The notes: a model not told the origin generated them from the letters alone. DNA of 64,000 bases from Bacteroidota bacterium (GCA_050258935.1 JBLMZS010000042.1:12778-76777); one strand, 5' to 3'; shown: positions 2,706 to 63,314, counted from the first letter of the stretch. Translations and numbers: made by a program.

Positions 2706-2708
2706 AAA

Positions 2709-4382: not shown

Positions 4383-4629
4383 ATTTTTATACCGGAATTC
4401 CTGTACTATTGAAATTACTAAATAAATCAGCACTACATGTACTTCTATGACATCGCTGAATTTTTACAAAAATATCATTTCAGTTGACAATCCGCAAATA
4501 CATATCTTCAATTATACCGGGTAAAATTCCGTACCTGATACAAACCGAACATTTTAAAAAGTAGTGCGTCTAATCAAAGGTAAGAAATAATTTTAGTCTT
4601 AACAATTTTACAATATAACAGGAGCCGTC

Positions 4630-7817: not shown

Positions 7818-7850
7818 TACATATAGTAATAATCCGGGCACAGAGTTAAG

Positions 7851-15279: not shown

Positions 15280-15368
15280 TGTTTTGCCCCTCCTTTATTA
15301 TTAAGGTAAATAGTTTTGGCAAATAATCAAGTACAGGCAGTATATTTCCGGTATTCATCCGTACATTG

Positions 15369-17588
15369 TTAAGCCGGAACACGAATATTCTTGTTCTGCG
15401 GAACAGAGTTCACATACAGCATTTTGTTCAACCGCAGTGATTCCCTTATAGTAAAGACAGTTTCCATACCGCAAATGATTTCTTCAAACGGTATAGGCGA
15501 AGTACCGTTTCTGAACGCGGTTATTACTTCATCCAGCATTTGCCTCTGCCCTTTATCCTGGTTAGAAGACCTGATTTTTTTTACTTTCTTCGCACCATGA
15601 AGCTCAAGAGTTCTGAAATCATCCATGGCAGCTGCCCGGTTATCACCATATACTTCCAACCTTTCCTTTGAGTATGACCTCGTGCCAATTGTATTATATA
15701 TCAGAGTTCCTGTTGATCCGTTGGTAAAAGTAATAATTATACTCAGATTGTCGTCATCTTTTGCAGCAGAGCTGTTCAAGGGCATAGATCTGGCAAAAAC
15801 CGTTTCAGGTACACTCCCGCATATAAATATCATTGTATCTATGAAATGGCACATCTCACCAATAAGCATACCGGCTCCTTCATCTCTGTCATGAATCCAT
15901 GAGTCCATCTGCATTTCTCCTGCATTCACACGGTATATCATTTGTTTAGGTGAACCGTGTTGAAAGTGATCTCTGGCCAGCCTGATCATATTTGAAAAAC
16001 GTCTGTTCAGTCCTGTCATTATGACTGCCGGAGTGGCTGTCTGTTCCGTGCTGGCGACAATATCAGCAAGCTGTTCTTCTGTTACTGCAATAGGTTTTTC
16101 AACAAATACATTTTTCCCCGCTGAAACTGCCCTGATAACATACTCTGCATGGGTGGAATGTCGGGTGACAATAAATACTGAATCCGTATTCTCATCTTCA
16201 ATAACTTTTGCAGCATCAGATGATGAAAATCCGAAACCGAATCTCTCTGACTTTTGCAATGCATTATTCCCTGTGGCGGTTGCAAGTCCTGTCAGAATTA
16301 CTGATTTATTTTCTTTGATATATGGTAACAGATGCAGCGTAGCATAACTGCCTGCCCCAATAAATCCAGCACGGCAGATCTCTCTGTGACCGCCCTGCCG
16401 CAGTTTATTCAGCGACATGTAATTTTTTATCCGTGAATTTAATACCAGATCGTTCTGGCTTTTATGAATGTCATACTTCAAAAGTATTCCAATATACCTG
16501 TCATTGCCGGATTTGATCAGATCATATGCCGAAAGCGATTCCTCCATAGCGTATTCATGAGTGGTCAGAATTTTTGTATTCAGTTTGTTTTCTGCCATCA
16601 GCTGAAGAACCGCCTGCATATTTCTTTTTTCAGTCCATCTTACGAACTCATATGGATAATCGATACCGCCTTCCTCGTAAGAATAGTCATATCTTCCCGG
16701 TCCATACGACATAGAAACCTTCAGTCCGAGTTCCTTTTTGTAATATATATCCCTGGGTATTTTCATACCCACCATTCCGACAATGATGATTTTTGCTTTT
16801 CTTCTGGCAGCTTCGCCGGCCATTTTCACCGGCTCATCGCTTTTTGTTGAGGCAGTTATAAATACATTATCAACTCCATAGCCTCCGGTGAAACGCATTA
16901 CCTTATCTGCAGCATATTCTTCAGGGATCAGTATCTGTTCATCCATACCGAGACCCATTGCTGTTTCAATCTTAAAACGGTTATGGTCAACTCCGATTAC
17001 CCTTAGTCCGTTTGCCTTTAGCATCTGTACTAACAGTAATCCGACCAGTCCCAATCCAATAACCATAGCCGATTCTCCCAGCTGAGGTTTTGCCAGTCTT
17101 AGCCCCTGTAATGCAATACTGGCTACCGTGGTATATGCAGCATCTTCAAATGATACATTCGCGGGTATCTTCACGGCCAGATTTTCCGGTACATAATTTA
17201 TTTCTGCATGATTGGCATACCCGGCACCGGCAATTGCAACGCGGTCTCCTCTTACGAATCCTTCAGTATCTCTGCCGGTTTCTTCAACAATTCCCGCCGC
17301 ACTGTATCCCAGAGGTGATGGTCTTTCCATTCTTGAGGAAATATTGTTATATGTATTAACCCAGCCTTCTTTTCTTGCCTTTGCAACTATCTGCCTGACC
17401 AGATCCGGTCTGGATCTGGCTTTGCCGATAATGCTTTTTTCGGCTAGTTCTATGATCGATTTTTCAGTCCCGGCACTTATCAATGAGTTAACTGTACGTA
17501 CAATTATCCCTTTATTTCTATTCATCGGAGGAGGTACCTCTTTCAGGCTGATTTCACCATTTCTTATGTTCTGAAGTATTTGCAGCAC
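15369..17588 (-). CDS. Bi-domain oxidoreductase (N-terminal MDR/alcohol-dehydrogenase-like domain plus C-terminal Gfo/Idh/MocA domain)
   Basis: The N-half has an MDR-like fold with the Rossmann motif VIGLGLVGLL. The C-half has GFIGAGSYATLHLLP and FVEKP, typical of Gfo/Idh/MocA NAD(P)-binding domains. 739 aa in one frame. Confidence 0.75.
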   Translation of the reverse strand: MLQILQNIRNGEISLKEVPPPMNRNKGIIVRTVNSLISAGTEKSIIELAEKSIIGKARSRPDLVRQIVAKARKEGWVNTYNNISSRMERPSPLGYSAAGIVEETGRDTEGFVRGDRVAIAGAGYANHAEINYVPENLAVKIPANVSFEDAAYTTVASIALQGLRLAKPQLGESAMVIGLGLVGLLLVQMLKANGLRVIGVDHNRFKIETAMGLGMDEQILIPEEYAADKVMRFTGGYGVDNVFITASTKSDEPVKMAGEAARRKAKIIIVGMVGMKIPRDIYYKKELGLKVSMSYGPGRYDYSYEEGGIDYPYEFVRWTEKRNMQAVLQLMAENKLNTKILTTHEYAMEESLSAYDLIKSGNDRYIGILLKYDIHKSQNDLVLNSRIKNYMSLNKLRQGGHREICRAGFIGAGSYATLHLLPYIKENKSVILTGLATATGNNALQKSERFGFGFSSSDAAKVIEDENTDSVFIVTRHSTHAEYVIRAVSAGKNVFVEKPIAVTEEQLADIVASTEQTATPAVIMTGLNRRFSNMIRLARDHFQHGSPKQMIYRVNAGEMQMDSWIHDRDEGAGMLIGEMCHFIDTMIFICGSVPETVFARSMPLNSSAAKDDDNLSIIITFTNGSTGTLIYNTIGTRSYSKERLEVYGDNRAAAMDDFRTLELHGAKKVKKIRSSNQDKGQRQMLDEVITAFRNGTSPIPFEEIICGMETVFTIRESLRLNKMLYVNSVPQNKNIRVPA

Positions 17589-17599
17589 TTTGTATTCCT

Positions 17600-19897
17600 T
17601 TAGTAAATTGTTTTTATTATATCATATGCAGTCTGTATATTCATCATTTTTTCAGATTTTCTATTTTCGAACCGGTTTATTTTATCTCTCAGATCATCCC
17701 AGTCCAGGTTCTTATAGAGGATACATCCTTCCGGTCGGCTCACGCAGTCTGAACAGATTACTGCTTTACCCAGCCAGAGTGCCTCACGGATTGAAACGGA
17801 ATCTCCGTCAGTGGTTGTCGCCCTCAGAAAGCAATCCGTCATTTGTATTATATCAATGAAACTATGAGGAAACGTTATTATCTTTACATTTTCCGGAATA
17901 GCGATATTTTTTTTCCTAAGATATTCCATATATGTATTTGTAGGGTTTGAAATTATCAGGCACAAATCACTGAAGCCGCTGAAGATGTTAATCAACCCGC
18001 TAATTCCATAAATTTCATTTCTTCTGATATCGAGCTTTGCTTCAAAAGCATTGGTACAGAAAGACATTTTGTATTTTTGTATGTAACTGCTGAGTTCCTG
18101 CGAGCGTGTTTCCTGAAGTGAACAGTATTCGTTACCTCCCGGAGGTATAAATGCCGTTATCATTTTTATATTTCTGTTGAACCTCAGGGCCCGTTCCAGA
18201 CTTATTCTGTTCAGTACAAGTGTATGCGCAGATACTACAATGGCCGAATACATCAGTATGTTATCAATTATTTTTCTGTTGCCCAGCTCTCCGTGCACTG
18301 TCAGTATTATTCTTTTCCCAAGTGTGCGGTAAAATACACTCAGCAGAAATATTGCCATAGGATTTGATATATTCAGGTGTACTGTGTCAACTCCACGGGA
18401 AAAGTAGAAATAATCTTTCAGAGAATTATTCCTTGGGCTAAGGTGGCGGTGTACAATATTATCTTCCTTCAGCTGTCTGAGCAGTCTCATTACATGTATG
18501 CTTACGCCTCCGGTTGGTGGCGGTGTCTGTCCTATTATTAACAGTTTATTCCCGCGTCGTGCTGAAGAATGTTTTTCAGACTGTTTTTCCTGAATTTCAT
18601 TTATTACAAACTTTAATTTTCCGTTTTCCGTCAGTTTTACTTCATCGACATAGTTGATTTTATATCTGAAATTATTACCGAGCTTATTTTTAATTTCAGA
18701 AATTATTCCCTCCTCTTCTTCGTTTGAATAGCCAGCAGCCCTTACGATGTTAAATGCTGCAGCGCCTTTTTCCTTTTGCACTATTTGTGCTCTCTTCACA
18801 TTCACTGCTTTCTTGAAGAAGAATCCCGATCCGCCGACTTTTGTACCATCATCTAGGTAGAGATAGTCCTGCTGCCGGCCCAGTATTTCCTTTACAGTCC
18901 TTGACTTTCTGCCGCAGGGACATTGTTTAGGATGCTCGAATAATCTGACTGTATCACCGGTATCATACCTGACAAGCGGGAATGCTTCGTTGTGATACGA
19001 AGACCCGACTATTCTGTATACGTCCTTTAACTCCGGGTCCTCCATGAATTCGACAAATGAAAAGGATTCATCCACATGGAGGCTGCCTTTTTCGCATTCA
19101 TAGATGCTTGCCACACCTTCCGTCAGACCATAGAGCTGCCGGACCTGACAGCCGAAGGTTTCTTCTATTATAGTCTTTTGGTAATTATACAGAGTTTCGC
19201 TGCTGGTGGTAATTATCTTCAGGTTCAGTTTTTTTGCCAGTTCGCCAAGACCGTTTTCTCTTATCAGAAAAGACATATAATTCAGAGTAGAAGGAAATCC
19301 ATGCATCCAGTGCAGATCCTCAGCAATCATTTTTTCCAGATACTGGACAATTGTGTTTTCATTGAGATGAGATATTGAAAACAATACCTGAGCTGTAGCA
19401 TACGACTTGATCCAGTATGGAGGATTTTTCCTGTCCGGATTCAGAATATTTCTTCCTATCAGGTAAGCACACCAGGTATTGGTGGTCAGACCGTACATGT
19501 ACCTGAATTTCCAGTAAATTGCCCATTGATGATCTTCGAAGTTCCTGCTGACAGGATAAATAAAACCGCTGCCGGTCGTACCGCTGCTGTTATGGAATGA
19601 GCTGATCTTTTTTCTGTTTATTATCCTGTCAAAGTTTTCCTTTGCGATTTCCTTATTTATTACAGGAAGTGAATAGAAATCCGACTCATTTCTGATTTTA
19701 TAGTATTCAGATTCCTTTACAACCCCGGTAATCCTGACAATGTCGAGATTACAGTATTCAGCTTTTGAGAGTTTCAGATAATGCTCTATAAGCTGGTAGA
19801 ATTTCATCGAAAACCGGTTTCTCCTTATGTTAATTCCATAAAGATTTACGCTTATAAACTGAAACAGGTATGGGATTTTAAAATAACTTCTGTGCAT
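17600..19897 (-). CDS. Fusion protein: adenylate-forming enzyme (phenylacetate-CoA ligase/CapK/F390-synthetase-like) plus GT-B glycosyltransferase-like domain
   Basis: The N-half has SSGTTGSGFIYPVS, QLYGLTEG, VRYDTGDTVRL and GRQQDYLYLDDG. The C-half has KLLIIGQTPPPTGGVSIHVMRL...TTTDGDSVSIREALWLGKAVICSD. There is no stop at the junction. An alternative start is MKFYQLIEHY at 19807. Confidence 0.65.
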   Translation of the reverse strand: MHRSYFKIPYLFQFISVNLYGINIRRNRFSMKFYQLIEHYLKLSKAEYCNLDIVRITGVVKESEYYKIRNESDFYSLPVINKEIAKENFDRIINRKKISSFHNSSGTTGSGFIYPVSRNFEDHQWAIYWKFRYMYGLTTNTWCAYLIGRNILNPDRKNPPYWIKSYATAQVLFSISHLNENTIVQYLEKMIAEDLHWMHGFPSTLNYMSFLIRENGLGELAKKLNLKIITTSSETLYNYQKTIIEETFGCQVRQLYGLTEGVASIYECEKGSLHVDESFSFVEFMEDPELKDVYRIVGSSYHNEAFPLVRYDTGDTVRLFEHPKQCPCGRKSRTVKEILGRQQDYLYLDDGTKVGGSGFFFKKAVNVKRAQIVQKEKGAAAFNIVRAAGYSNEEEEGIISEIKNKLGNNFRYKINYVDEVKLTENGKLKFVINEIQEKQSEKHSSARRGNKLLIIGQTPPPTGGVSIHVMRLLRQLKEDNIVHRHLSPRNNSLKDYFYFSRGVDTVHLNISNPMAIFLLSVFYRTLGKRIILTVHGELGNRKIIDNILMYSAIVVSAHTLVLNRISLERALRFNRNIKMITAFIPPGGNEYCSLQETRSQELSSYIQKYKMSFCTNAFEAKLDIRRNEIYGISGLINIFSGFSDLCLIISNPTNTYMEYLRKKNIAIPENVKIITFPHSFIDIIQMTDCFLRATTTDGDSVSIREALWLGKAVICSDCVSRPEGCILYKNLDWDDLRDKINRFENRKSEKMMNIQTAYDIIKTIY

Positions 19898-19914
19898 TTT
19901 AATTTTCCCTTATG

Positions 19915-21045
19915 TTATGCTGCTATAGAATTTTCTGTGCTGTCCAATTCAGCTCCGTACACCACATCGCGGTAGAGCATCAGGTATCTGCTTGTACATT
20001 GTTCGATATCAAATTGAGGAATTTTCCTGACAGACATTTCCGAGTACTGTTTCCTGAGCACAGGATCGTCAATCAGCCTGAGAATTTTTTCTGCCAGTGA
20101 ATTCTTATCCTCTTTGACTGCAAGTTCCCCATTGACGCCATCACTTATTATTTCATGATTGCTTCCGACATCAGTGGCAACTATCGGGATTCCTGAAGCC
20201 ATCGCTTCGAGCAGTGCTATCGACAGTCCTTCCCAGCGCGATGACAGAACAAATATATCGTGCGATGCCAGAAGTTCCGGAATATCCTTTCTCACGCCCA
20301 TAAATTCAATATAACCGGTCATTCCGAGCTTTTGCGTCTCTTTTCTGAGTATCTTCTCCAAAGGTCCCGTGCCCACTATATCTAAGACTGGTACTCTTCT
20401 TCCATGCTTCAACAGTTCTTCGGCTACTATTGAATATGCATTAATAAGAGTTATATGATCTTTCTGGTGATTCAGTCTTCCTATGTTTAATATATGTTTT
20501 ACTTCCTTTCTGAAGTATCTGTGGCACCTGAATTTATCTGCATTGATTCCATTGAATATAAGAGTGACCCTGTCCTCAGGTAATTTTAGTATTCTCAGTA
20601 TTTCGTCTTTGCACTTTGTCGAAATAGCAACAAAGCGGTCCGCAGTACTTCTGGCAAGTATCTTCTGCAGCAGTGGATATTCTATTACGGTATTGTGAAT
20701 AGTCTGAACAAGTCCGAATTTCATCAGTAATCTTGCTGAGGCCACATAAAATGTTGCGAGTTCGGAATGTGTGTTAATTATATCCGGGTTTTTCTCTCTG
20801 ATAAGCCGGAATATCCTTTTTATAACCCAAAAACGCTGCTTTCCGGGCGTTTTGCCAATTATAGTGTAGCCGACATTCTTATTAAGCAGTTCGGCAATGA
20901 AATCAGTTTCAAACTGCGGATCCTCCGCCTTGCCGATTGCCCATACTTCAACTTTTGCCTCACCAGTACTTCTTATTGCCATATCTTTTATCAGTACCTC
21001 TGCTCCTCCTGGTCCGAATGAGGAAATAACATGAACGATTTTCAT
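19915..21045 (-). CDS. Glycosyltransferase family 4 (group 1)
   Basis: MKIVHVISSFGPGGAEVL N-terminus and the E-x7-E motif SRWEGLSIALLEAMASGIPIVATDVGS. Confidence 0.8.
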   Translation of the reverse strand: MKIVHVISSFGPGGAEVLIKDMAIRSTGEAKVEVWAIGKAEDPQFETDFIAELLNKNVGYTIIGKTPGKQRFWVIKRIFRLIREKNPDIINTHSELATFYVASARLLMKFGLVQTIHNTVIEYPLLQKILARSTADRFVAISTKCKDEILRILKLPEDRVTLIFNGINADKFRCHRYFRKEVKHILNIGRLNHQKDHITLINAYSIVAEELLKHGRRVPVLDIVGTGPLEKILRKETQKLGMTGYIEFMGVRKDIPELLASHDIFVLSSRWEGLSIALLEAMASGIPIVATDVGSNHEIISDGVNGELAVKEDKNSLAEKILRLIDDPVLRKQYSEMSVRKIPQFDIEQCTSRYLMLYRDVVYGAELDSTENSIAA

Positions 21046-21100
21046 TGATCCAACCTTTCCGAGTCTAAATATTTACTCTGCTCCAGTTCCAATGCTTATC

Positions 21101-22312
21101 CTAATATCTAAAATACTGCGCAAGCAGATTCTTTTCTTTTTCAATTCTCAGGTGTACATTCATCAGCATTGCCACGGAAAGCCAAAGGTATTTATCATAG
21201 AGAATCCCCAGTGTAAAGCCCATCATCAAAATTCCCATCACCGCAGCGTGTATCCAGAAGTATCTGGAATAATAAATATCCCTGAAGTTTTTGGCCGCCA
21301 GTATGATCAGAAATACTATGAATGCAGTAAATACTATTAGTCCGCTTTCTGCCAGTATTTTTACGTATATACTGTGCGGGGCTATGGCATCATCCGAAAT
21401 ATAGACTTTCGAATATTTTCTGGTATGTTCGCTAAATGAGTTCATTCCAACACCGGAAACCGGTTTGTCTGCGAACATATTGAACCCGGCTTTCCAGCTG
21501 TTGATCCGGAACAATGCAGTTCCTGTCTGTTTACTCCTGCCGACAAGGTTTTTAGTCATTTCCATGTTCTTTATATCTGAACTGAATAATGAGAACATAA
21601 TTACCACAGCAAGAACCAATGCAGCCCCGGCCACAGCCATCTTATTTACAGACAGTGCGCTTTTTCTTGCTGCAATCCATATCCCAAGTATTGCACAGAC
21701 AATAAACGAAGACAGAGATGCCGCATACAGAATTGAATTAACAAACAATGTTATGGACAAAATCATTATGGCAAACTTCAGCCAGCTAATTCTTATACTC
21801 TGTACCATATAGAACGATATCAGTATAAATAGAATCATCTGTGCTGCAAATTCATTTGGATCACCAGTTCCGCCGGTTCTTCTGAATGTCCACCTGCTGA
21901 TAGGAGCACTGAATGCAAGCAGAACCGCAGAAAATGACAGCGCGATCCAGATATATGCCGTCAGATAGTTAATGTCGTAATTGATGTAGTACAGTACAAT
22001 GACAATCATGGAAACCAGCAGCATCATATTTTCTAGAAGTGCACTAAACCCGCCTTCTGCCGGATTCACAAGCATCATTATATAATTCATCGCGAAGAAT
22101 ATGTAAAACGGGATCAGATACTTCAGGTTTCTGATTGTAACCAGGTTTTTCCAAATATCATATAAATGGAATACGATGAAAAACGCTGTAATTATTTTCA
22201 GTGAATTCGCACCCAGGATTTCAACAGTAAAGTTGTCATTGAAAATACTGAAGACAAATATAAAATTTGTACATTCTGTTATAATGCGCATTATCTTACC
22301 AGCTGATAGCAT
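21101..22312 (-). CDS. O-antigen polymerase/ligase-family membrane protein (Wzy-like)
   Basis: 403 aa with about 10 TM segments. The loop RINSWKAGFNMFADKPVSGVGMNSF resembles the Wzy_C / O-antigen ligase signature. Confidence 0.6.
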   Translation of the reverse strand: MLSAGKIMRIITECTNFIFVFSIFNDNFTVEILGANSLKIITAFFIVFHLYDIWKNLVTIRNLKYLIPFYIFFAMNYIMMLVNPAEGGFSALLENMMLLVSMIVIVLYYINYDINYLTAYIWIALSFSAVLLAFSAPISRWTFRRTGGTGDPNEFAAQMILFILISFYMVQSIRISWLKFAIMILSITLFVNSILYAASLSSFIVCAILGIWIAARKSALSVNKMAVAGAALVLAVVIMFSLFSSDIKNMEMTKNLVGRSKQTGTALFRINSWKAGFNMFADKPVSGVGMNSFSEHTRKYSKVYISDDAIAPHSIYVKILAESGLIVFTAFIVFLIILAAKNFRDIYYSRYFWIHAAVMGILMMGFTLGILYDKYLWLSVAMLMNVHLRIEKEKNLLAQYFRY

Positions 22313-23633
22313 CTCTGATCTTCTTCCTTACAAATATCGAAAACAAATACTCTATGCCGGCAATTGAAATATTTACAAGCGCAAACCCAAGTATTAGATT
22401 ATACTGCAGTACAGTATTGCAGAGAACTATAACAATAATAAGTCGCATAAGATTTATAATAAACTCTGTACGATTATAATTCATGGTCTTTGATAACAGA
22501 GTTATCATTCCGCAGTAGAAAAGCAGGAAATTGGATTCAAACAGTATAAATGAAAACATAACACTGTTATTGCTAAGGTATTCCGGTTTAATAAACAGCA
22601 CAATAAGAGAAAGAATTAAAGATACTACGATTGAACCTGTAACAAATATTACCTTCATTCTTTCCAGTTTGGTCAGATATTTCCTTATACGTGATTCTTC
22701 GTTAATATTGAGCCGCGCCAGGAAATAATTCCTGAACGAAGAATAAAACACCAGAATTATTCCAATAAAGGTCATAGCATATCCCATATCTGCAACAGCC
22801 TGTTCGTTCTTTCCTGTCAGGTAGAGAATGACGTATCTTGCCGTATACAGATACAGCACTCCAGATATATGAATTGTAAATGAATAACTGATGAAACTAA
22901 AGAACTTTTCTGAAGTTAATGAATAGGTCTCTTTCGCCCCGGTTCTATGCTGCCGTGCAGACGAAAGAATAATGGACAAGTTGATATATATAAGGTGAAC
23001 CAATGATGGAATAAGAGGCAGAAACAATGTCGAAATAAAAATTGAATATATATCATTCTGCCCCAGGGAATAATGGTATATAACTGCGGCAACACGCAAT
23101 ATGAGAATAATTATAGAGTGAGTAAACAGAATATTAAGCTTGCCAGTTGCCAGCAGCCAGCTTTTCAAATACATCCATGACAGTTGCGCTATTATAAGCA
23201 GGAAGAATATTTCCGCACTAACGCCTACATTTTTCAATCCGAATATATTATTCAGCTGCATGGGAAATATATGCGCAGAAACTGCCAGAATCACGAAAAC
23301 AAGCATCTGCAATACACTGTTATAATACTTGACCGAATTATCCAGCTGATAGAACCGAACAAAGCTAGTGGAGAAGCTCAGTTCAAACAAGGATGTAAGT
23401 ATAAGCAGCAGCTGCATTCCTGAAGAATATGCTGCCATCAGAGTGGTGGTAAGAATATACGGAATAAGGAAACTTACCACATAGGCAGACGAGCTATATA
23501 TAAGATTCGACACGAGAAATGATATAGTTTCGGGGACGAATCCTCCCCGGCGGTCTGAAGCTGTAAAGGCATTTGGTCTGAACGGCAGTGTAATTATTCC
23601 CGGCAGACTATATTTCATAAATATTTTCTGCAT
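22296..23633 (-). CDS. Polytopic membrane protein, putative Wzx-like oligosaccharide flippase
   Basis: 445 aa, very hydrophobic with about 12 predicted TM segments. It sits between the Wzc-like and Wzy-like genes and overlaps both neighbours (1 nt and 17 nt). The assignment rests on position and topology, not on motifs. Confidence 0.4.
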   Translation of the reverse strand: MQKIFMKYSLPGIITLPFRPNAFTASDRRGGFVPETISFLVSNLIYSSSAYVVSFLIPYILTTTLMAAYSSGMQLLLILTSLFELSFSTSFVRFYQLDNSVKYYNSVLQMLVFVILAVSAHIFPMQLNNIFGLKNVGVSAEIFFLLIIAQLSWMYLKSWLLATGKLNILFTHSIIILILRVAAVIYHYSLGQNDIYSIFISTLFLPLIPSLVHLIYINLSIILSSARQHRTGAKETYSLTSEKFFSFISYSFTIHISGVLYLYTARYVILYLTGKNEQAVADMGYAMTFIGIILVFYSSFRNYFLARLNINEESRIRKYLTKLERMKVIFVTGSIVVSLILSLIVLFIKPEYLSNNSVMFSFILFESNFLLFYCGMITLLSKTMNYNRTEFIINLMRLIIVIVLCNTVLQYNLILGFALVNISIAGIEYLFSIFVRKKIRDAISW

Positions 23634-25921
23634 TACACTTTTTTCTTTCTCAAATACTTTTTCTTCTCCGGTTCTTCATTATATGCGTTATAGCCATACT
23701 GCTTCCCATATGAAAACGGTGCATCTGCAGGGTCGAATTCATTCAGAACTACCCCACCTGCATGCACTCCGACATGTTCCAGTTGTGACTGTGCTGCTCT
23801 TATTTCGCTGACGTTTGTTACGCCGGCCCGGGCTACAAGTATTACTTCGTCTACACACCTGGCAAGATGAATTGCGTCAGTAATCGGATTCAGCGGAGGT
23901 GCATCATAAACAATAAAATCATATTGCTGATTCTGACTTTCAATGAAGTTCTGCATTTTTCCCGATGAAAGTGCTAGCGATGTATTTATTATTCTGCGTC
24001 CGCAGGTTATAACATCCAGTCCCTTTACATTTGCAGGCTGAATGATTTCATAAATTTCGTTGCTTTCCAGAAGATAGTCTGTCAGGCCCGGCGTAATTGG
24101 TTTTTTAAAGAATTTGTGTACTACCGGCCGTCTGAGATCTGTATCTACGAGTAATACATTTTTTTCCAGATTGGCGAGTGTAATTGCCAGGTTTATTGCA
24201 GTTGCACTTTTCCCGGCCCCAGGAGCAGCACTGGTAATGAGAATTGTTTTCCTTTTATTGTTAACATTATTATAAATGATATTAACTCCAAGACGCAGAA
24301 ATGCTTCATAAATTTCCGATCGCGGGTCGCCTGCAACAACTAGTTCGGTACTACCAAGTCCGCTGCCAGCTGATAACCTCATGACCTGCTGTTTTTCCAG
24401 TTTCAGTCGTGGTATAGTAGACAAAAGTCTAAGTCCCATACCGTCTATATCCTCAGGAGAATGCACCCGGTTATTAATACCGTTTAATACAAATGCAGTT
24501 ATGAGTCCCAGACTAATACCGCTCAGCAGTGCAAGCAGAAGGTTCAGTTTTACATCTGGGCTTACCGGTTCAAGAGGAACCGATGCCTTGTCCAGGATAT
24601 CTATCTGTCCGAAAGTCGAGAGCTCATTTAATCTTGCTTCCTCGTATCTCTTTCCGATATCCATAGAGATACTCTCTGTAAACTGCCTGTCACGCTGTAG
24701 CTTGGCTAGTGTAATGCTTTGTTTAGGTAGTCTGTGCAGTCTCGCACTGTATTTTACAAGATTGTCATACAGTGCATTTTTACTTATCTCCAGAGATTCG
24801 ACCTTCAGTTTTAACCGCTGTATTTCGCCGGAAAGAAATGTTATGTCGTTAACTCCCGAGTTATTATTACCCGCAATAGAGTATCCGTCAATAGAGTTAT
24901 CTATATATTTTTTTGTTCTTTCCTGAAGTATATTTTTAAGTGAATCAATCGATTTATTAGTTCGTGCAAATTCCTTCTGGACAGCAGGGCTCTGGTTTCC
25001 GCCGACGACTTTTGAAATATCTTTCTCGGCTTCTTTCCTGGCTATTGTTTTCTGGAGCTCCTGTATATAGATATCATCAACATCAATGAGTTTCTTCGTA
25101 AAATTCGGGCCCATCCTTTTTAGTTCTTTCTGATAACTATCCAGGAGATGTGCCGATTTCTGGTACTCCATTTCATTTGACTCCAGTTCGGACTCAATAC
25201 TTGCTATACGTTGTGCAAGTAATGCCCCGTCAGTCTGCGGTTCAGGAGTCTCAGAACCCTGCATGTAGTTCTGGAGTGCCGAGTCTGTCTGTCCAAGCTG
25301 GGCGGTTTTATTTCTCACCTGTGTTTCCAGAAATTTTCTCAATTCGGATGCATCCGCTCTGCTTCTCTGAAGGTCACGATCATGGTATGTATCTACGAAA
25401 ATATTTGTTATAATTGCTGCTTCAACCGGGTCAGTACTCCTGAATAATATTTTTATTATGCTCGTCTCCTTATTCATTTGCAGAGACATAGAATTTTTAA
25501 GTTCTTTTATTATCCCTTCTGTAAGCAGGTTGTCAGTGATATGCAGATTACTTCTCAGCATTCCTGCATTTCTGATTATCTCCATTGTGTCTTTGTTTGC
25601 CGAAGAGTCAGCATATGTACGCCGCAGTATTTTCTCAGATACCAGCTGAAGCAAATCCCGTGAGTTCAGAATTTCATACTGGTTTTGAAGATTATTCAGC
25701 TTGTCCTCCGGTGTTTTGGCACTGGCCCCAAACTTGGCAGAATTATCCTTTACAATTACTGAAGCATATGCTTCATATGTTTTCTTCTGTGTAAATGTAT
25801 ATATTGCAACAATACTGAATATGACCAAAACAATAGTAAGAATGGTCCATTTCTGTCTTACCAAGATCTCAAGTATGTGTAGAACACTAATAGGCTTATC
25901 ATTTATCCTGCTGTCGTTCAT
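23633..25921 (-). CDS. Polysaccharide co-polymerase / tyrosine autokinase (Wzc/GumC-like)
   Basis: N-terminal Wzz-like TM and periplasmic coiled-coil region. C-terminal kinase with Walker A SAAPGAGKSATAINLA, Walker A' LVDTDLRRP, Walker B DFIVYDAPP, and a Tyr-rich tail YGKQYGYNAYNEE. Confidence 0.8.
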   Translation of the reverse strand: MNDSRINDKPISVLHILEILVRQKWTILTIVLVIFSIVAIYTFTQKKTYEAYASVIVKDNSAKFGASAKTPEDKLNNLQNQYEILNSRDLLQLVSEKILRRTYADSSANKDTMEIIRNAGMLRSNLHITDNLLTEGIIKELKNSMSLQMNKETSIIKILFRSTDPVEAAIITNIFVDTYHDRDLQRSRADASELRKFLETQVRNKTAQLGQTDSALQNYMQGSETPEPQTDGALLAQRIASIESELESNEMEYQKSAHLLDSYQKELKRMGPNFTKKLIDVDDIYIQELQKTIARKEAEKDISKVVGGNQSPAVQKEFARTNKSIDSLKNILQERTKKYIDNSIDGYSIAGNNNSGVNDITFLSGEIQRLKLKVESLEISKNALYDNLVKYSARLHRLPKQSITLAKLQRDRQFTESISMDIGKRYEEARLNELSTFGQIDILDKASVPLEPVSPDVKLNLLLALLSGISLGLITAFVLNGINNRVHSPEDIDGMGLRLLSTIPRLKLEKQQVMRLSAGSGLGSTELVVAGDPRSEIYEAFLRLGVNIIYNNVNNKRKTILITSAAPGAGKSATAINLAITLANLEKNVLLVDTDLRRPVVHKFFKKPITPGLTDYLLESNEIYEIIQPANVKGLDVITCGRRIINTSLALSSGKMQNFIESQNQQYDFIVYDAPPLNPITDAIHLARCVDEVILVARAGVTNVSEIRAAQSQLEHVGVHAGGVVLNEFDPADAPFSYGKQYGYNAYNEEPEKKKYLRKKKV

Positions 25922-58484: not shown

Positions 58485-59564
58485 TTGATTACAGCAATAC
58501 TGATTACTGCATACATTCTCTTTAACATATTTCTGTTTCTGCCATTATACAGACAGAAAGAAGCTCTGCTGCCTGGTGCGCTCACTGAACAGGATGGTAT
58601 TTCTGTTGTTGTAGCTGCCAGAAATGAAGAATCCTGCATTGCAGAGGTTATCACAGCCCTGTACTGCCAGTCGTACAGTTGTGACAGATATGAAGTTATA
58701 ATTGTGGATGATAATTCTTCTGACTCAACTTATGATACTGCGCTCAGCTGCGGTTTGGGAAAGCAGAACTTCTCTGTCGTAAAAGCCAATGACAAACCTT
58801 TCGCGGCAAAAAAAGGAGCTCTTGCTGTGGGGATTGCCAGAGCACGATTTGACTATATTGCTATTACCGATGCTGACTGCAAGCCTGAGAAGAACTGGCT
58901 CCAGACTCTCTCACTGGGAATATCAAGCGGAAACGACATGGTGTTCGGCCCTGCACCATTTGCCGCAGGCAACGGACTAGTAAACGCTATTGCACGGTTT
59001 GAAAACTTAAGATCTTCAATGCTTACTTTTTCTGCCGCCCTTATGGGCTTGCCTTATTCCGCGGCTGCCCGCAGTTTTGCATTCAGAAAATCAGCATATC
59101 TGGGCATCGGCGGATATTCCAACACCACAGAAACATTAAGCGGCGATGATGACCTGCTGATTCGCGAAGCAGTAAAACACAAACTTAAAATAGCACCGGT
59201 AACCGCAGACGGAGCTTTTGTATGGTCGGCGGCAAAAAGTACACTTAGTGAATATCTGAGGCAAAAATCGAGGCATACATCGACATCCAGTCATTACCTG
59301 CCCGCGCATCAGATTTTCCTGGCTGCATGGCACGGACTAAACCTTTTCTGTCTGTTCTCCCCCCTGCTCTGGTTTGTCAGCAGCCTTTTTCTTCTGCCGT
59401 TTTTTGTAAAACTATTACTTGATATTATCACCGTATCGCTGTCAGAGCGTAAGTTCGGATACGGGTTTTCAATTCTTCAGATAATCTGTCTGCAGCCGAT
59501 ATATGAATTGCTGCTTATAGTAAATTTTCTGTCTTCGTTGTTTCCGAGAAAAAACTGGAACTGA
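58485..59564 (+). CDS. Glycosyltransferase family 2, membrane-anchored
   Basis: TTG start as given in the ORF track. ISVVVAARNEE, IIVDDNSSDST, ITDADC (DxD) and SGDDDLLIRE, followed by C-terminal TM helices. Confidence 0.75.
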   Translation: MITAILITAYILFNIFLFLPLYRQKEALLPGALTEQDGISVVVAARNEESCIAEVITALYCQSYSCDRYEVIIVDDNSSDSTYDTALSCGLGKQNFSVVKANDKPFAAKKGALAVGIARARFDYIAITDADCKPEKNWLQTLSLGISSGNDMVFGPAPFAAGNGLVNAIARFENLRSSMLTFSAALMGLPYSAAARSFAFRKSAYLGIGGYSNTTETLSGDDDLLIREAVKHKLKIAPVTADGAFVWSAAKSTLSEYLRQKSRHTSTSSHYLPAHQIFLAAWHGLNLFCLFSPLLWFVSSLFLLPFFVKLLLDIITVSLSERKFGYGFSILQIICLQPIYELLLIVNFLSSLFPRKNWN

Positions 59565-59604
59565 AAAAAGGGGGCTGTTGAATATCAACAACCCCCTCTG
59601 TTCT
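59565..59604. terminator. Bidirectional rho-independent terminator between convergent genes
   Basis: aaaaaa-GGGGGCTGTTG-aatat-CAACAACCCCC-tctgttcttt: an 11-bp stem with one mismatch. The minus-strand reading is followed by tttttt. Confidence 0.75.
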
Positions 59605-62118
59605 TTATTCAATTAGTCCGAATTTATATCCGCGTCTTTTCAGTTCACCGATCAGAGCATCGAGCTTATTATAAAACTTGTCGGTCCTTCTTGGATCCGT
59701 TCCGAAATGGGTAAGCAGAATAAATCCGTTCAGTCCCTTATCGGAGTTCTTTTCAAATTCCAGTATTCTTGAATATATTTCGTCGCTAGATTTATACTGC
59801 CCTTTCAGTTCCGGGATTGTCCAGTCGGCATTTGAATATGTACCAGGAGTAAAGTTGACCAGTTTAAGTCCGGCCTCTGCAGTCCAGTCAGCTATCTGCT
59901 GGTTATACCATTCATAAGCCGGCAGAAAATAACGGGCCTGTTCTTTTTTTACACCGAACTTCTCCATTTCCTTATAGTTGTCCCTTACATCCGTCAGATA
60001 CTGTTCTTTTGTTACCAGCGTGGAATCGCGCTTTGTCCAGTCATTATACAGCACATGTTTATCCGAATGAGCGCCCAGATAGTGCCCGTTCTTCTTGAGG
60101 TCGTATATTACCGAAGCGAACTTTGGATTTCTGTAGAAGTCACCGGTAAAAAAGAACGACGCTTTTATATTATGTTTTTTCAGTACATTTATTATAGTAG
60201 TACCGCCGTCTGCAAATTCATGACCGGTGAAAACCAGGTGAATCATTTTTTCAGAGGGATCGGTACGTACTATTGCTCCGAGATATTCTTCATTGGTCTT
60301 TTTTTTTTCTATAAGCGATTTTTTCCCGTCCTTACCGGTTTTAACAGCCTTCTGACCCATGGTCTGCATGGATGACAGATAGTATGTCAGGCTTGCAGTA
60401 CCGTCCATTGTCGGCTCATTGGTGGAATAGTCGCCGAAATCATCGTGATAAACTACTCTCGATGACTGGAATTCTGCATACTCATCGGGCTGATCGAGTC
60501 TGAGTCCCTCTAGTTTTCTGAATATGGAGCCATATACCGGGCCGTCAACGAGTCCGCCTTTGATCGGGTATTTTTTCAGTACCCATAGTGACGAGTGCGG
60601 GTCTGAAGGGCTGTCGCCGTTCTCCGGCAGCCCGATAATCATGCTTGTGCCCCATGGATTGCATCCGAACAGCCAGTCTCTGAGTGCAGCCTCCATTTCG
60701 AGATATTTTTTGTCTCCTGTAACTTCATTATACAATCTGCACTGAGTAAGCATTGCAGCCACCAGATTGTTTGAGCACCAGATAAACGGTATGCCAATAA
60801 GGAACGGGTTGGATTTGCCTTTCTCAAATACGTTTTCAATTCCCTGCTTGAAAAATCCTGTAAACTTATTCTTTATGGATTTATCGCGTGTGTCAGACAT
60901 ATAATAATGTCCCAGGTTCAGGAACGGATACCACTGATAATGATCTGCAGTATCAGCCCCCATCCATGGCGTAACCGGTTCTTTTTCTCCGAAACCGGCA
61001 GCATCCTTCAGATAATTTTTATCATTTGTTTTTCTGAACAGCTGAACTGCCGCCAGTTCCATATCGTCTACATAATTATCTTCTTCGTAGTAATATGGTG
61101 ACTTGCAGGGAGCGGTCTGGCAGGCACCCGGATGCTTCTTGCCGTAATTATATGCTTCAACTGCTTTTTTGTTTATTTTTTCCGAGAATTCGGGATAGTA
61201 TTTCTTCAGCAGCTCCGCGCCCAGTGCAAAAGCCGATGAAAACTTGCCTGCTGTGGAAGCTATACCAGTAGCCATATTCTTATACTTGAATAGGCCCTGA
61301 ACCTCACCAGTGCAGAAATAAACAGGCCTTTCAAGTCCCTTTCCATAACTTACAGAATCCAGATTAGGCAGTCTGAATCCGGCATGATCACGGTCGTCAG
61401 CTATCTGGTTGAACATAATTTCATTTTCCGGATTCATTTTTACCAGCCAGTCAAGGCCCCATTTGGCCTGATCGAGTATATCCGGGATGCCGTTTTTCCC
61501 GGGGTTCCCGTCTTTGTCGTACTGATCTCCGAAAGCATCCGGGTTCTGCTGATATGCGAACAGTAGCTGATAAACAGCATTTGCACTTGTGGTAACGTAC
61601 TGCAGATAGTCTGTAGCGTCGTGCCATCCGCCGGTAGCGTCTATGTGTCTGCCTTCCATTTCCTTGTTATAGATCACAAATCCGTCGTGTTTGTGGCATG
61701 AGTCCTTCAAAAACGGATTATAGCCGCATTGCTGCTGTCTCATATATTTCAGCAGGAAGTCAGCAGTATTATCGTAAACATCGTTCCCTATTCTGAAAGC
61801 CGGAGATTTAATATTACCAGTTTTAAGAAAATATGTACCCGGAACAGAAAAGGCGGAGAAATCTAGCCGGTATGAAGCTGTAAATGATCCATACTTTCCG
61901 CTGTTACGGACTTTGCTGATAGTCCTGACAGTCTGTCCTGTAAGAGCGTCGCATATATCAAAACTCCTGACAGAAATATTATCCTTGCTCAATAGCACAG
62001 CATTTTTTATGGAATTATTCAGGTACCCAAGCTGATTGATACGTATCCAGCTGTTCTGAGCGAACAGACAGGAATAAGAAATAATAAAGAAAACAAGCAG
62101 TCCGAATTTTTTCATCAC
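59605..62118 (-). CDS. Secreted bifunctional enzyme: GH9-family glycoside hydrolase (with N-terminal Ig-like domain) fused to a CE4-like polysaccharide deacetylase
   Basis: Signal peptide MMKKFGLLVFFIISYSCLFAQ. GH9-like GGWHDATDYLQY (a variant of GGWYDAGD), DRDHAG and YSTNEPTMDG. A Lys-rich linker is followed by the deacetylase-like IHLVFTGHEFADGG, GAHSDKHVLY (H-S-x-x-H) and GFILLTHFG. Confidence 0.7.
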   Translation of the reverse strand: MMKKFGLLVFFIISYSCLFAQNSWIRINQLGYLNNSIKNAVLLSKDNISVRSFDICDALTGQTVRTISKVRNSGKYGSFTASYRLDFSAFSVPGTYFLKTGNIKSPAFRIGNDVYDNTADFLLKYMRQQQCGYNPFLKDSCHKHDGFVIYNKEMEGRHIDATGGWHDATDYLQYVTTSANAVYQLLFAYQQNPDAFGDQYDKDGNPGKNGIPDILDQAKWGLDWLVKMNPENEIMFNQIADDRDHAGFRLPNLDSVSYGKGLERPVYFCTGEVQGLFKYKNMATGIASTAGKFSSAFALGAELLKKYYPEFSEKINKKAVEAYNYGKKHPGACQTAPCKSPYYYEEDNYVDDMELAAVQLFRKTNDKNYLKDAAGFGEKEPVTPWMGADTADHYQWYPFLNLGHYYMSDTRDKSIKNKFTGFFKQGIENVFEKGKSNPFLIGIPFIWCSNNLVAAMLTQCRLYNEVTGDKKYLEMEAALRDWLFGCNPWGTSMIIGLPENGDSPSDPHSSLWVLKKYPIKGGLVDGPVYGSIFRKLEGLRLDQPDEYAEFQSSRVVYHDDFGDYSTNEPTMDGTASLTYYLSSMQTMGQKAVKTGKDGKKSLIEKKKTNEEYLGAIVRTDPSEKMIHLVFTGHEFADGGTTIINVLKKHNIKASFFFTGDFYRNPKFASVIYDLKKNGHYLGAHSDKHVLYNDWTKRDSTLVTKEQYLTDVRDNYKEMEKFGVKKEQARYFLPAYEWYNQQIADWTAEAGLKLVNFTPGTYSNADWTIPELKGQYKSSDEIYSRILEFEKNSDKGLNGFILLTHFGTDPRRTDKFYNKLDALIGELKRRGYKFGLIE

Positions 62119-62552: not shown

Positions 62553-63314
62553 TTACAGTGTATGCTTAAGTCTGGAAAAATACCTGCGACTTATAAGAAG
62601 CGGTTCCGGATGGTTTTTCATATAGAGATTGACAGAATTGTTGAACCATTTTTCAATTTTGTCGATCTGGCCAATATTTATTATCGTATTTCTGTGAATT
62701 CGTATGAACTGCTCTTCAGGCAGCAGATTTTCCCATTGTTTCATCGGTCTGCGCACCATTACGCGATTATTTTCGTCAATGCAGATCATTGAATAGTCAC
62801 CCATGGCGGATATGAATTTAATCGATGATAGTTTTAATATCCTGGGCTTGCGGTTTACTTCGACGTATATATGTCCTGACCGTGTATATTCCTTTTTCCC
62901 CGCATTTTCATTTTTCCCGTGCTGGTGAATCACTCTGTATTTTTCGGCTGCTTTTTTGAACTGAATCCTTACTGCCCGTATCAGCTCGTCATCAGTGAAT
63001 GGCTTTGTTATATAGTCATCAGCACCTGATTCCATCCCCTTCCTTATTTCCTTCCTGTCTGCCATACCGGTAAGGAAGATGAACGGCAGGGACGAAGTTT
63101 TCCTGGTATTCTGTATTTTCTTCAGTACTGCGTAACCGTCTGTCCTGGGCATTTTGATATCACAGATAATCATATCGGGCATATCCTTCAATGCCATCTT
63201 AATGCCAGCCTTGCCGTCGGCCGCAGAAATTGCAGAATATCCATGCAGTGTCAGCATATCGATGATCAGACGCCTGGAATTATCTTCATCTTCAACGACT
63301 AAAATTTTCTTCAT
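62553..63314 (-). CDS. Two-component response regulator, LytTR DNA-binding family
   Basis: Receiver domain (ILVVEDED..., phospho-acceptor context MIICDIKMPRTDG, ITKPF) plus a C-terminal LytTR domain (IKFISAMGDYSMICIDENNRVMVRRPMKQWENLLPEEQFIRIHRNTIINIGQI). Confidence 0.85.
   Translation of the reverse strand: MKKILVVEDEDNSRRLIIDMLTLHGYSAISAADGKAGIKMALKDMPDMIICDIKMPRTDGYAVLKKIQNTRKTSSLPFIFLTGMADRKEIRKGMESGADDYITKPFTDDELIRAVRIQFKKAAEKYRVIHQHGKNENAGKKEYTRSGHIYVEVNRKPRILKLSSIKFISAMGDYSMICIDENNRVMVRRPMKQWENLLPEEQFIRIHRNTIINIGQIDKIEKWFNNSVNLYMKNHPEPLLISRRYFSRLKHTL

Follow-up and report, generated by a model that had tools for sequence, protein, structure and literature searches.

The stretch of DNA analysed here (64,000 nucleotides of a Bacteroidota bacterium, GCA_050258935.1 JBLMZS010000042.1:12778-76777; called the window) carries on its minus strand a gene for a two-enzyme fusion, in which a glycoside hydrolase family 9 (GH9) domain is followed by a carbohydrate esterase family 4 (CE4) domain. 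The original prediction for this gene, made from the sequence alone, was an 837 amino acid (a.a.) open reading frame (ORF) at 59605-62118 with a signal peptide, an Ig-like N-terminal domain, a GH9-like domain and a deacetylase-like domain. The ORF is present as described, and every motif that had been quoted for it (including YSTNEPTMDG, the Lys-rich linker and HSDKH) is found at the computed coordinates (Table 1). It encodes 837 a.a. from a GTG start and 836 a.a. from an ATG at 62115; a public protein (P0001, 836 a.a., 100% identical) starts at this ATG, one codon later. The Ig-like and GH9 domains are recognized by Pfam (CelD_N and Glyco_hydro_9), and all three Pfam domains of the protein exceed their curated cut-offs. 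The N-terminus, MMKKFGLLVFFIISYSCLFA followed by QNSW, resembles a Sec signal peptide, with a predicted cleavage site between LFA and QNSW (judged by eye). An AlphaFold2 model, computed from a 40-sequence alignment, has a mean pLDDT (predicted local distance difference test) of 85.7 and a pTM (predicted template modelling score) of 0.84; beta-strands are present in the CelD_N region, and disorder is confined to the Lys-rich linker (pLDDT <50 at residues 598-605). Given thousands of homologues and a confident model, the GH9-CE4 gene is certainly real.

The GH9-CE4 fusion is widespread and uncharacterised. More than 8000 candidates were found at E<=1e-5 in a collection of 5.8 billion proteins, and the best 120 matches (59-68% identity) all carry the same three domains. 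Relatives are encoded by 245 stretches of GTDB species genomes, the best 80 of which are full length or nearly so (49-71% identity to the window protein). The hosts include Ignavibacteriales and Melioribacter, as well as cultured Emticicia, Chitinophaga, Pedobacter, Dyadobacter, Sphingobacterium, Flectobacillus, Niabella and Spirosoma. In public databases these proteins are named "glycoside hydrolase family 9 protein", "endoglucanase" or "PgdA/CDA1 family deacetylase". We found no mention or characterisation of a GH9-CE4 fusion in the literature on GH9-CE4 pairing, GH9 glucosaminidases, Melioribacter, salvage of N-acetylmuramic acid (MurNAc) in Tannerella and chitosan polysaccharide utilisation loci.

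The GH9 domain matches the full PF00759 profile (positions 1-444; 242 bits against a cut-off of 27.7, E 2e-71). In an alignment of 95 members of the GH9-CE4 family, G163, G164, W165, H166 and A168 are invariant, and the two catalytic Asp are conserved in 94 (D167) and 95 (D170) of the 95. The canonical DAGD motif had been described as altered, which is correct in that its Gly is replaced by Thr in the window protein: this position, residue 169, carries Ser in 75 members, Thr in 19 and Ala in one. Loss of the catalytic base can be ruled out as the meaning of this change, as both catalytic Asp are conserved and the change from Gly to Ser or Thr is trivial. The acid region is retained, as predicted: E568 is present in 95 out of 95 members, at the position of the acid motif (NEP/NEV) in 3x17 and J30. 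The family hidden Markov model, the two catalytic Asp, the acid Glu and the (alpha/alpha)6 barrel fold are thus all found: this is a bona fide GH9 domain, and it is probably active.

Its nearest solved sequences are Ig-GH9 endoglucanases, namely 3x17 (3e-33), J30 and CelD, together with the xyloglucanase BoGH9A (E 1e-33 to 1e-19 for the group), whereas the exo-glucosaminidases of Vibrio and Photobacterium match only the N-terminal part of the protein, at about 1e-8. Structure comparison gives the same ranking. The top Foldseek matches (3x17, AaCel9A, J30 and BoGH9A) have target TM (template modelling) scores of 0.77-0.80, and the leading matches as a whole (endo-type enzymes, CbhA and a xanthanase; comparably sized structures) have target TM scores of 0.72-0.80 at 19-25% identity; the exo-glucosaminidases are found at ranks 17-23 (target TM 0.68-0.70, 16-17% identity). 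The exo-glucosaminidase subgroup is characterised by a cleft that is shut off beyond subsite -1, through an extension of the alpha1-alpha2 and alpha9-alpha10 loops (PMC6096475). The alpha1-alpha2 segment of the window protein is no longer than that of the endoglucanase 3x17 (in the sequence alignment only), and the conserved insertions of the GH9-CE4 family lie elsewhere in the GH9 domain (residues ~254-262 and 269-285). By sequence and fold ranking, then, the domain lies outside the characterised exo-glucosaminidase clade and closer to the endo-type Ig-GH9 enzymes; on this basis, membership of the exo-beta-D-glucosaminidase subgroup (PBPRA0520/VC0615) was rejected, and the original prediction needs correction on this point.

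We also observed the Cys-Cys-His positions of the J30 Zn site in the GH9 domain (C131, C141 and H142, about 61693-61728). Of the three, C131 varies within the family; the other two residues are invariant. This Zn site is the one that was engineered back into the endoglucanase J30 ('J30 CCH', 5u2o), and a structural metal site at these residues is possible.

The C-terminal domain scores as CE4, in agreement with the prediction of a deacetylase-like domain: it matches PF01522 (Polysacc_deac_1; residues 621-753, 2.8e-12, 47.1 bits against a cut-off of 23.1) and has a NodB fold according to Foldseek. When the family profile was compared with PDB sequences, the closest matches, with full-length alignments, were BaCE4 (2j13, 2e-16) and PdaA (1e-13), both MurNAc deacetylases, together with 7y51/7fbw and with deacetylases of peptidoglycan N-acetylglucosamine (GlcNAc); 2c71 and 7ax7 are weak matches. 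The structural matches include Bc1960 (4l1g, target TM 0.77) and BA3943 (6hm9, 0.63). Equivalog models of the PgdA and PdaA types are far below their cut-offs (e.g. 58.9 bits against 298 for the PdaA equivalog TIGR02884, a MurNAc de-N-acetylase of delta-lactam biosynthesis).

CE4 enzymes are defined by five motifs, MT1-MT5 (PMC10967932), and three of these are canonical in the GH9-CE4 family. The exact H-S-x-x-H motif of the original prediction is MT2 (H684-S-D-K-H688), with H684 in 95 and H688 in 94 of the 95 members; D765 of MT4 (D765-W) and H804 of MT5 (L-L-T-H804) are found in all 95. The family has kept the Asp-His relay and the catalytic acid. MT1 differs from the canonical TFDDG: its consensus is F-[TS]-[GA]-[HD]-x-[FY]-x-[ED]-G, and in alignments to PdaA, 2j13 and 7y51 the position of the catalytic-base Asp is occupied by T631 (Thr or Ser in the subfamily). 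His/Asp633 or Asp/Glu637, the only candidates, may provide the third metal ligand. MT3 departs from R-P-P-Y, as Arg is replaced by Leu, Ile, Met or Val while P733 is kept; at the second Pro, present in most members, the window protein carries Ala. E736, which follows MT3, is invariant, and both E736 and N739 are family-specific.

With the CE4 domain as query, an exhaustive scan of 1.84 billion representatives gave 192 clusters (50% identity) at E<=1e-30; conservation was tallied over 118 of the top 150 representatives listed, 36 of which are standalone proteins. H684, H688, E736, N739, D765, H804 and R811 are each about 90-99% conserved among the 118 (e.g. H684 in 108, H688 in 104 and D765 in 117), and [TS]631, [HD]633, [ED]637 and G638 are the conserved positions of MT1. 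Conservation of this kind is typical of a working active site under purifying selection. None of the solved CE4 structures compared has the same arrangement of MT1 and MT3. From these alignments we recognize a distinct CE4 subfamily with strong selection on catalytic-type residues and a re-wired base. Its deacetylase activity is plausible, even likely, but not assured, because the canonical Asp and Arg are absent and inert CE4 proteins exist; both inert CE4 proteins and relocated catalytic residues (in NodB2 proteins and Agd3) are documented (PMC10967932).

Members of this CE4 subfamily are also found as standalone proteins or fused to PQQ-like beta-propellers, HEAT repeats or CBM20 plus an esterase (public proteins P0121, P0128, P0133, P0136, P0169, P0171 and P0223). 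One standalone member (loci L089/L090) is followed by two LytTR regulators and a Y_Y_Y sensor kinase, with a TonB receptor nearby; this context is not diagnostic, and the contigs of the reverse-order fusion, of the CE4-propeller fusion and of a second standalone CE4 are too short to provide one.

The two domains have been joined, separated and rearranged in several ways. A reverse-order fusion (CE4-CelD_N-GH9) with the same CE4 subtype is found in P0166 (835 a.a.) and P0132, whose GH9 domains are ~43% identical to that of the window protein; judging from the sequences, the reverse-order GH9 domains are a sister clade, and GH9 and CE4 have been joined at least twice. In the closest relatives of the window protein (L054, L059 and L061; 71% identity), the GH9 ORF stops and CE4 continues in another frame, directly after a run of ten A in the linker, and in two of the three the stop and start overlap as ATGA. 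GH9-only versions (L055, L074 and L083; about 590-610 a.a.) end at the linker, are 63-71% identical to the fused forms and are interspersed among them. The reverse-order fusion, the split ORFs, the GH9-only forms and the standalone or otherwise fused CE4 domains together make a Rosetta-stone argument, and a strong one, that the GH9 clade and the CE4 subfamily serve one process, in which CE4 is an optional addition.

The window linker has its own A10 tract, on the coding strand and in frame at the GH9/CE4 junction, where a change of +1 or -1 would yield a GH9-only product of 609-615 a.a. In L054, L059 and L061, which come from different assemblies, the A10 tract is at the same place (~9740-9760) and in the frame that separates GH9 from CE4. 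The tract could reflect phase variation, slippage or assembly error. As a family-wide feature it was rejected: runs of at least eight A are found in only 3 of 74 other loci.

We surveyed gene neighbourhoods by clustering the ORFs of 80 GTDB loci all against all, with a tally of marker genes over 87 loci. No family-wide conserved operon was found among the 80 loci, and the commonest neighbours are generic (response regulators, SusC, aldo-keto reductase). The gene usually stands alone: 67 of the 87 loci, including the window, have no informative neighbours, and 20 have markers if generic partners are included. Peptidoglycan-specific markers were found in nine of the 87 loci and markers specific to chitin or amino sugars in seven (16 together), while no cellulose or hemicellulose gene recurs beside the family in the 80-87 loci, nor does any competing theme. 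Wherever the gene does have clustered partners, these are genes for the catabolism of amino sugars or GlcNAc glycans and in no case of cellulose.

Chitin-type contexts are best seen in L082 and L005, with the order ROK, TonB receptor, 707-a.a. protein, PorV-like protein, GH9-CE4, GH18 with a type IX secretion system (T9SS) tail, ROK, MFS and SIS. In L082 all genes from the TonB receptor to SIS are co-directional, the GH18 protein has chitinase matches at 6e-71, and the SIS protein is of the PRK02947 family and matches SCO4393, which is NagS, a GlcNAc-6-phosphate dehydratase (PMC12680351). In L083 the order is 709-a.a. protein, PorV-like protein, GH9-only protein, T9SS protein, GH2, MFS, ROK, GT2 and GH9-CE4; its GH2 protein is a full-length homologue (1e-154) of the exo-beta-D-glucosaminidase CsxA. 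ROK, MFS and NagS-like genes are also found in L003 and L016, and GH18 in L054, L059 and L061.

Peptidoglycan-type contexts are found in other lineages. In Sphingobacterium/Albibacterium (L075 and L078-L080), co-directional clusters consist of SusC, SusD, DUF4623, GHL10 (PF02638), a Metallophos/PQQ-propeller protein, GH9-CE4, MurQ and an SSF symporter, and in L075 MurQ overlaps the GH9-CE4 stop; we regard this cluster as a candidate polysaccharide utilisation locus directed at peptidoglycan or MurNAc. A SusC-like gene is within 8 kb of the GH9-CE4 gene in 11 of the 80 loci, and the co-directional SusC/SusD pair is found in these four. In three Chitinophaga loci AnmK (663 bits against a cut-off of 616), MurQ and SSF genes are divergent from GH9-CE4. 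The MurQ proteins are above the TIGR00274 equivalog cut-off and the AnmK proteins above that of NF007149. MurQ is within 8 kb of the gene in 7 of the 80 loci, in two different arrangements; MurQ is typically single-copy, and by a rough estimate chance would place it within 8 kb in well under one locus in 80. In Paludibacter (L024) the order is SSF, GH9-CE4, NlpC/P60+SH3, an MR/MLE epimerase, a Golvesin_C protein and a PBP4B-like protein; the epimerase resembles DgcA and L-Ala-D/L-Glu epimerase, below the cut-offs. A DUF1611 gene is the divergent neighbour in L010. YkfB/YkfC and YcjG are enzymes of peptidoglycan peptides, yfeW (PBP4B) of Escherichia coli is located in the murQP operon, and DUF1611 is DgcN, the partner of DgcA.

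Two further neighbours were observed. The Metallophos+PQQ-propeller protein is encoded directly upstream of GH9-CE4 in the Sphingobacterium cluster, and PQQ-like propellers are the ones also fused to the CE4 subfamily elsewhere. Aldo-keto reductase is the most frequent single neighbour (L001, L002, L003, L006, L007, L012, L017, L041, L070, L084 and L086), and in L084 it overlaps the GH9-CE4 start.

The N-termini of 120 family proteins are ordinary Sec signal peptides that end just before a conserved SWIRINQxGY; a lipobox-like motif is found in only five of them, and the C-terminus is the CE4 domain itself, with no T9SS sorting domain. With a Sec signal peptide, no lipobox and no T9SS tail in a diderm host, the protein is most likely soluble and periplasmic, so that the predicted export is upheld and given a probable destination. 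What the sequences show directly is the domain architecture, the conserved catalytic residues of GH9, the conserved but re-wired CE4 site, the fusions and fissions and the gene neighbourhoods; we infer, besides the location, the substrate, N- rather than O-deacetylation, the order of the reactions and the endo or exo mode of GH9. On the interpretation that we favour, and to which we give an even chance, the protein is a Sec-exported periplasmic enzyme of amino-sugar glycan catabolism with two catalytic domains, which would deacetylate and then cleave at glucosamine (GlcN). Beta-1,4-linked GlcNAc oligosaccharides would arise outside the cell (e.g. through cell-wall lysis or the action of a GH18 chitinase secreted by the T9SS), and a TonB-dependent receptor would import them; the CE4-fold domain would remove N-acetyl groups, leaving GlcN residues, and the inverting GH9 domain (base D167/D170, acid E568) would hydrolyse the beta-1,4 bonds next to them. 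MFS or SSF transporters would then take up GlcN or GlcNAc, and in some lineages MurNAc or anhydro-MurNAc, to feed the ROK-kinase/NagS-like or AnmK/MurQ routes. A periplasmic location fits the logic of the clusters, which runs from secreted GH18 through the TonB receptor, GH9-CE4 and MFS/SSF to the kinases and MurQ or NagS-like proteins.

Oligomers derived from chitin or chitosan are the likeliest substrate in the Ignavibacteria-type lineage of the window. In Sphingobacteriia, some Chitinophaga and Paludibacter, the orthologue seems to have been co-opted for the salvage of GlcNAc-MurNAc from peptidoglycan, and in several lineages this substrate is at least as well supported as chitin. GH9 may act in an endo, chitosanase-like manner rather than as an exo-glucosaminidase, as suggested by its endo-type fold and by the co-occurrence of the CsxA exo-glucosaminidase in L083. 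More specifically, and more tentatively, GH9 might have an undescribed specificity, i.e. endo cleavage of partially deacetylated chitin or chitosan and/or of the GlcN(Ac)-MurNAc backbone, coupled to the re-wired CE4 (perhaps through E736 or [D/E]637), with the poly-A tract toggling between GH9-only and GH9-CE4 products in the lineage of the window; we think it somewhat doubtful that this holds. The fused deacetylate-and-cleave enzyme for GlcNAc glycans that was originally predicted is partly supported and, taken broadly, gains strength: the CE4 domain, the coupling and the amino-sugar neighbours speak for it, but the CE4 site is non-canonical and the GH9 domain is not of the exo-glucosaminidase clade.

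Several observations weigh against the amino-sugar interpretation. Sequence and fold both place the GH9 domain nearest to a group of endoglucanases, a xyloglucanase and a xanthanase and not to the known GH9 glucosaminidases; the CE4 domain has neither the canonical catalytic Asp of MT1 nor the Arg partner of MT3, and 6hm9, which ranks among its best structural matches, has been called a pseudoenzyme; some CE4 enzymes are O-acetyl esterases; the orthologues with informative neighbours, from which the function is extrapolated, are a minority; and the chitin-type and peptidoglycan-type contexts are not obviously those of one substrate. These points lead to different alternatives. The protein might be an enzyme of beta-glucans or plant cell walls, in which an endo-beta-1,4-glucanase (for cellulose, xyloglucan, glucomannan or an acetylated exopolysaccharide (EPS) backbone) is assisted by a CE4 O-acetyl esterase that strips off acetyl groups, in the manner of GH10/GH11-CE4 xylanase-esterases. 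The GH9 ranking and the 'endoglucanase' annotation fit this, CE4 includes acetylxylan esterases (2c71 and 7ax7 being the weak matches), and a GH26 gene is located about 4 kb away in L084. Melioribacter roseus grows on cellulose, and its Mros2837, a CelD_N/GH9 protein of 96.3 kDa with a signal peptide, is listed as a putative endoglucanase, its CE4 domain not being noted (PMC3534657); from its size and from locus L005, Mros2837 is a probable orthologue of the window protein. But the carboxymethylcellulose (CMC) zymogram of this organism has bands of 55-65 kDa only, and no 96-kDa CMCase band is reported (PMC3534657), which we count in favour of the amino-sugar interpretation. Moreover, it is chitinase, CsxA, NagS-like, MurQ and AnmK genes that recur in the neighbourhoods, not cellulose or hemicellulose genes, identity to any characterised glucanase is only 20-25%, and the closest CE4 relatives are peptidoglycan N-deacetylases rather than esterases. 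We therefore consider a beta-glucan enzyme unlikely. That the CE4 domain is an inert pseudoenzyme, which binds carbohydrate or positions the substrate for GH9, seems to us less likely again: the missing Asp and Arg, the documented inert CE4 proteins (PMC10967932), the pseudoenzyme 6hm9 and the GH9-only orthologues, which evidently function without CE4, all speak for it, but the two His of MT2, the Asp of MT4 and the His of MT5 are, with E736, N739 and R811, conserved in standalone and variously fused proteins alike, as would not be expected of a mere binding module, and the relocated residues of NodB2 proteins and Agd3 provide a precedent (PMC10967932).

A substrate common to the whole family might also be peptidoglycan, as periplasmic peptide-free strands or GlcNAc-(anh)MurNAc, the chitin-like neighbours then reflecting shared GlcNAc metabolism. 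MurQ, AnmK and SSF genes are adjacent in three taxonomic orders, in different arrangements, the NlpC/P60, epimerase and PBP4B-like genes of L024 and the DUF1611 gene of L010 point the same way, the best CE4 matches are MurNAc deacetylases (PdaA and BaCE4 2j13), and in the window an import-type gene triad is followed by genes for Amidase_2, an M3 peptidase and a beta-lactamase-fold protein. However, the partners in the lineage closest to the window are a GH18 chitinase and the exo-chitosanase CsxA, MurQ could not make use of deacetylated MurNAc, the PdaA equivalog score is far too low, and we know of no GH9 enzyme that cleaves peptidoglycan. The ampG-murTKQ salvage operon of Tannerella forsythia has neither GH9 nor CE4 (PMC5388701). 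Peptidoglycan as the primary substrate throughout is, in our judgement, slightly more doubtful even than an inert CE4 domain. Hydrolase-deacetylase fusions are typical of the poly-N-acetylglucosamine (PNAG) and Pel systems, so a biosynthetic, EPS-modifying enzyme that works like PgaB or PelA with the adjacent membrane GT2 was also considered. The GT2 gene is only 40 bp away in the window, and recurs in L087, but this neighbour is confined to close relatives that share the UvrD synteny as well, it is convergent with GH9-CE4 with a hairpin in between, the partners in clustered loci are catabolic (TonB receptors, kinases and MurQ), and the EPS cluster of the window (12-26 kb) is about 35 kb away. 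The hydrolase is GH9, not the GH153 or GH166 that accompany a synthase operon in PgaB and PelA systems, and we regard a role in EPS biosynthesis as very improbable.

The immediate neighbours of the gene in the window (a LytTR regulator, the convergent GT2, UvrD and FloA) are uninformative on function; there is no co-directional SusC/SusD pair beside it, and the synteny is common only to the close relative L087. The LytTR-type response regulator is encoded just upstream on the same strand, and one is near the gene in L087 too (7489-8292); LytTR regulators dedicated to GH9-CE4 or to the CE4 subfamily are possible. The membrane GT2 (Glyco_transf_21/GT2_3 type) recurs only in the close relatives L087 and L077. 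A perfect hairpin, rich in G+C (GGGGGCTGTTGA...TCAACAACCCCC), lies in the 40-bp spacer between the two genes and resembles a bidirectional terminator.

At the other end of the window, 56 kb from the GH9-CE4 gene, there is a triad of a TonB-dependent receptor fragment, a ~705-a.a. protein without Pfam domain and a PorV-like protein. Such a triad is directly upstream of GH9-CE4 (L005 and L082) or GH9-only genes (L055, L074 and L083), and it may represent a SusC/SusD-like import system of Ignavibacteria-type genomes. It is followed in the window by genes for Amidase_2 (N-acetylmuramoyl-L-alanine amidase, 7e-29), an M3 oligopeptidase and a beta-lactamase-fold serine hydrolase, a set that looks like peptidoglycan-fragment processing. 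A 573-a.a. protein encoded farther on weakly resembles GH123 enzymes (4e-8 for the N-terminal and 8e-5 for the catalytic domain), which are beta-N-acetylgalactosaminidases. The rest of the window consists of housekeeping genes and a biosynthesis cluster of EPS/O-antigen type, which encodes a GT4-family sugar-phosphate transferase, GT1/GT4 glycosyltransferases, a fused ADH/GFO oxidoreductase, a Wzy-like polymerase and a Wzz/tyrosine-kinase, and includes two large ORFs without Pfam match.

Table 1. Features of the GH9-CE4 gene and other features of the window (positions counted from the first letter of the window)
Feature	Position	Strand	Basis
Whole gene: signal peptide, CelD_N, GH9, linker, CE4	59605-62118	-	ORF list, Pfam, identical public protein P0001
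Sec-type signal peptide, residues 1-20	62059-62118	-	read from sequence
CelD_N Ig-like domain, residues 21-104	61807-62058	-	Pfam PF02927, 4e-19
GH9 catalytic domain, (alpha/alpha)6 barrel, residues 115-581	60376-61776	-	Pfam PF00759 and Foldseek
GGWHDATDYLQY, catalytic Asp pair D167/D170	61597-61632	-	95-member family conservation
YSTNEPTMDG, catalytic acid E568	60400-60429	-	conservation and alignment to 3x17, J30
Lys-rich disordered linker KAVKTGKDGKKSLIEKKKTNEE, residues 590-611	60286-60351	-	sequence and model pLDDT
A10 tract in the linker	60299-60308	-
CE4/NodB-fold domain, residues 612-837	59608-60285	-	Pfam, profile against PDB, Foldseek
FTGHEFADG, non-canonical MT1	60205-60231	-	alignments to PdaA, 2j13, 7y51
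HSDKH, MT2 metal-binding His pair H684/H688	60055-60069	-	family conservation
LPAYEWYN, MT3 variant	59902-59925	-	family conservation
MT4 D765-W and MT5 LLTH (H804)	59707-59826	-	family conservation
Spacer with hairpin	59565-59604
Membrane GT2	58485-59564	+
LytTR-type response regulator	62553-63314	-
Triad, whole	73-3779	+
TonB-dependent receptor fragment	73-504	+
~705-a.a. protein	588-2705	+
PorV-like protein	2709-3779	+
Amidase_2	3837-4433	-
M3 oligopeptidase	4630-6690	+
Beta-lactamase-fold hydrolase	9368-10525	-
573-a.a. protein, GH123-like	10601-12322	-
EPS/O-antigen-type cluster	~12337-25921	-
Large ORF in EPS cluster	17600-19897
Large ORF in EPS cluster	22296-23633

GH9 genes are routinely counted as cellulases when carbon cycling is deduced from genomes of uncultured Ignavibacteria and Bacteroidota, and the Melioribacter genome paper counted the probable orthologue as cellulase-type (PMC3534657). 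If the amino-sugar interpretation is true, thousands of annotated 'cellulases' in these groups would be periplasmic enzymes of amino-sugar glycans (from fungal, arthropod or bacterial necromass), and such deductions would shift from plant material to the turnover of microbial and fungal necromass; GH9 would gain a new specificity, and among the CE4 enzymes there would be a new subfamily whose catalytic arrangement is non-canonical. To deacetylate and cleave GlcNAc glycans with one polypeptide could help in the making of defined chitosan oligomers, and the cultured hosts (Chitinophaga, Sphingobacterium, Pedobacter and Melioribacter) make the hypothesis directly testable. The architecture, annotated as it is and yet uncharacterised, is relevant to specialists in carbohydrate-active enzymes and to the recognition of 'cellulolytic' genomes, and does not change a paradigm.

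Among known systems, the GH9 exo-beta-D-glucosaminidases of Vibrionaceae, i.e. PBPRA0520 (5dgq/5dgr), VC0615 (6gdt) and VP2484 (3h7l), act downstream of a separate CE4 chitooligosaccharide deacetylase in their pathway (PMC6096475). They share with the window protein an Ig/Fn3-like N-terminal domain, a GH9 barrel and an inverting Asp/Glu mechanism, and their pathway has the order proposed here, deacetylation and then cleavage at GlcN (PMC6096475); however, they are cytoplasmic and unfused, unlike the window protein with its signal peptide and its CE4 fusion. The same two-step logic (GlcNAc deacetylation, then GlcN hydrolysis) is found in the chitin pathway of Thermococcus, with the deacetylase Dac and the exo-glucosaminidase GlmA (PMC4814513), and in a deacetylase pathway with GH9 'chitobiases' proposed for Chitinispirillum (PMC6566704). 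The steps belong there to separate CE14 and GH35 proteins or to an unfused GH9, whereas here both would share one periplasmic polypeptide. The Ig-GH9 enzymes (the metagenomic 3x17, J30 5u0h/5u2o, Alicyclobacillus acidocaldarius Cel9A, Clostridium thermocellum CelD 1clc and BoGH9A 6dht) have the same CelD_N and GH9 domains with GGWHDAxDY and NEP motifs, but the family has DA[S/T]D, and PHS[AS] where 3x17 has PHHR, and differs from the endoglucanases in its fused CE4 domain and its amino-sugar neighbours. Deacetylases of the PdaA, BaCE4 and PgdA types share the NodB fold and the H-S-x-x-H, D-[W/Y] and L-x-H motifs with the CE4 domain, which is unlike them in missing the MT1 Asp and the MT3 Arg and in having the new invariant E736, N739 and R811. 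Finally, in C. thermocellum Xyn11A-CE4 (2c71) and in PgaB/PelA a CE4-type domain likewise shares its polypeptide with a glycoside hydrolase, and both act on one polymer, but such fusions of xylan systems and of PgaB/PelA use other hydrolase families (GH11, GH10, GH153 and GH166) and canonical CE4 motifs, and serve xylan degradation or EPS biosynthesis.

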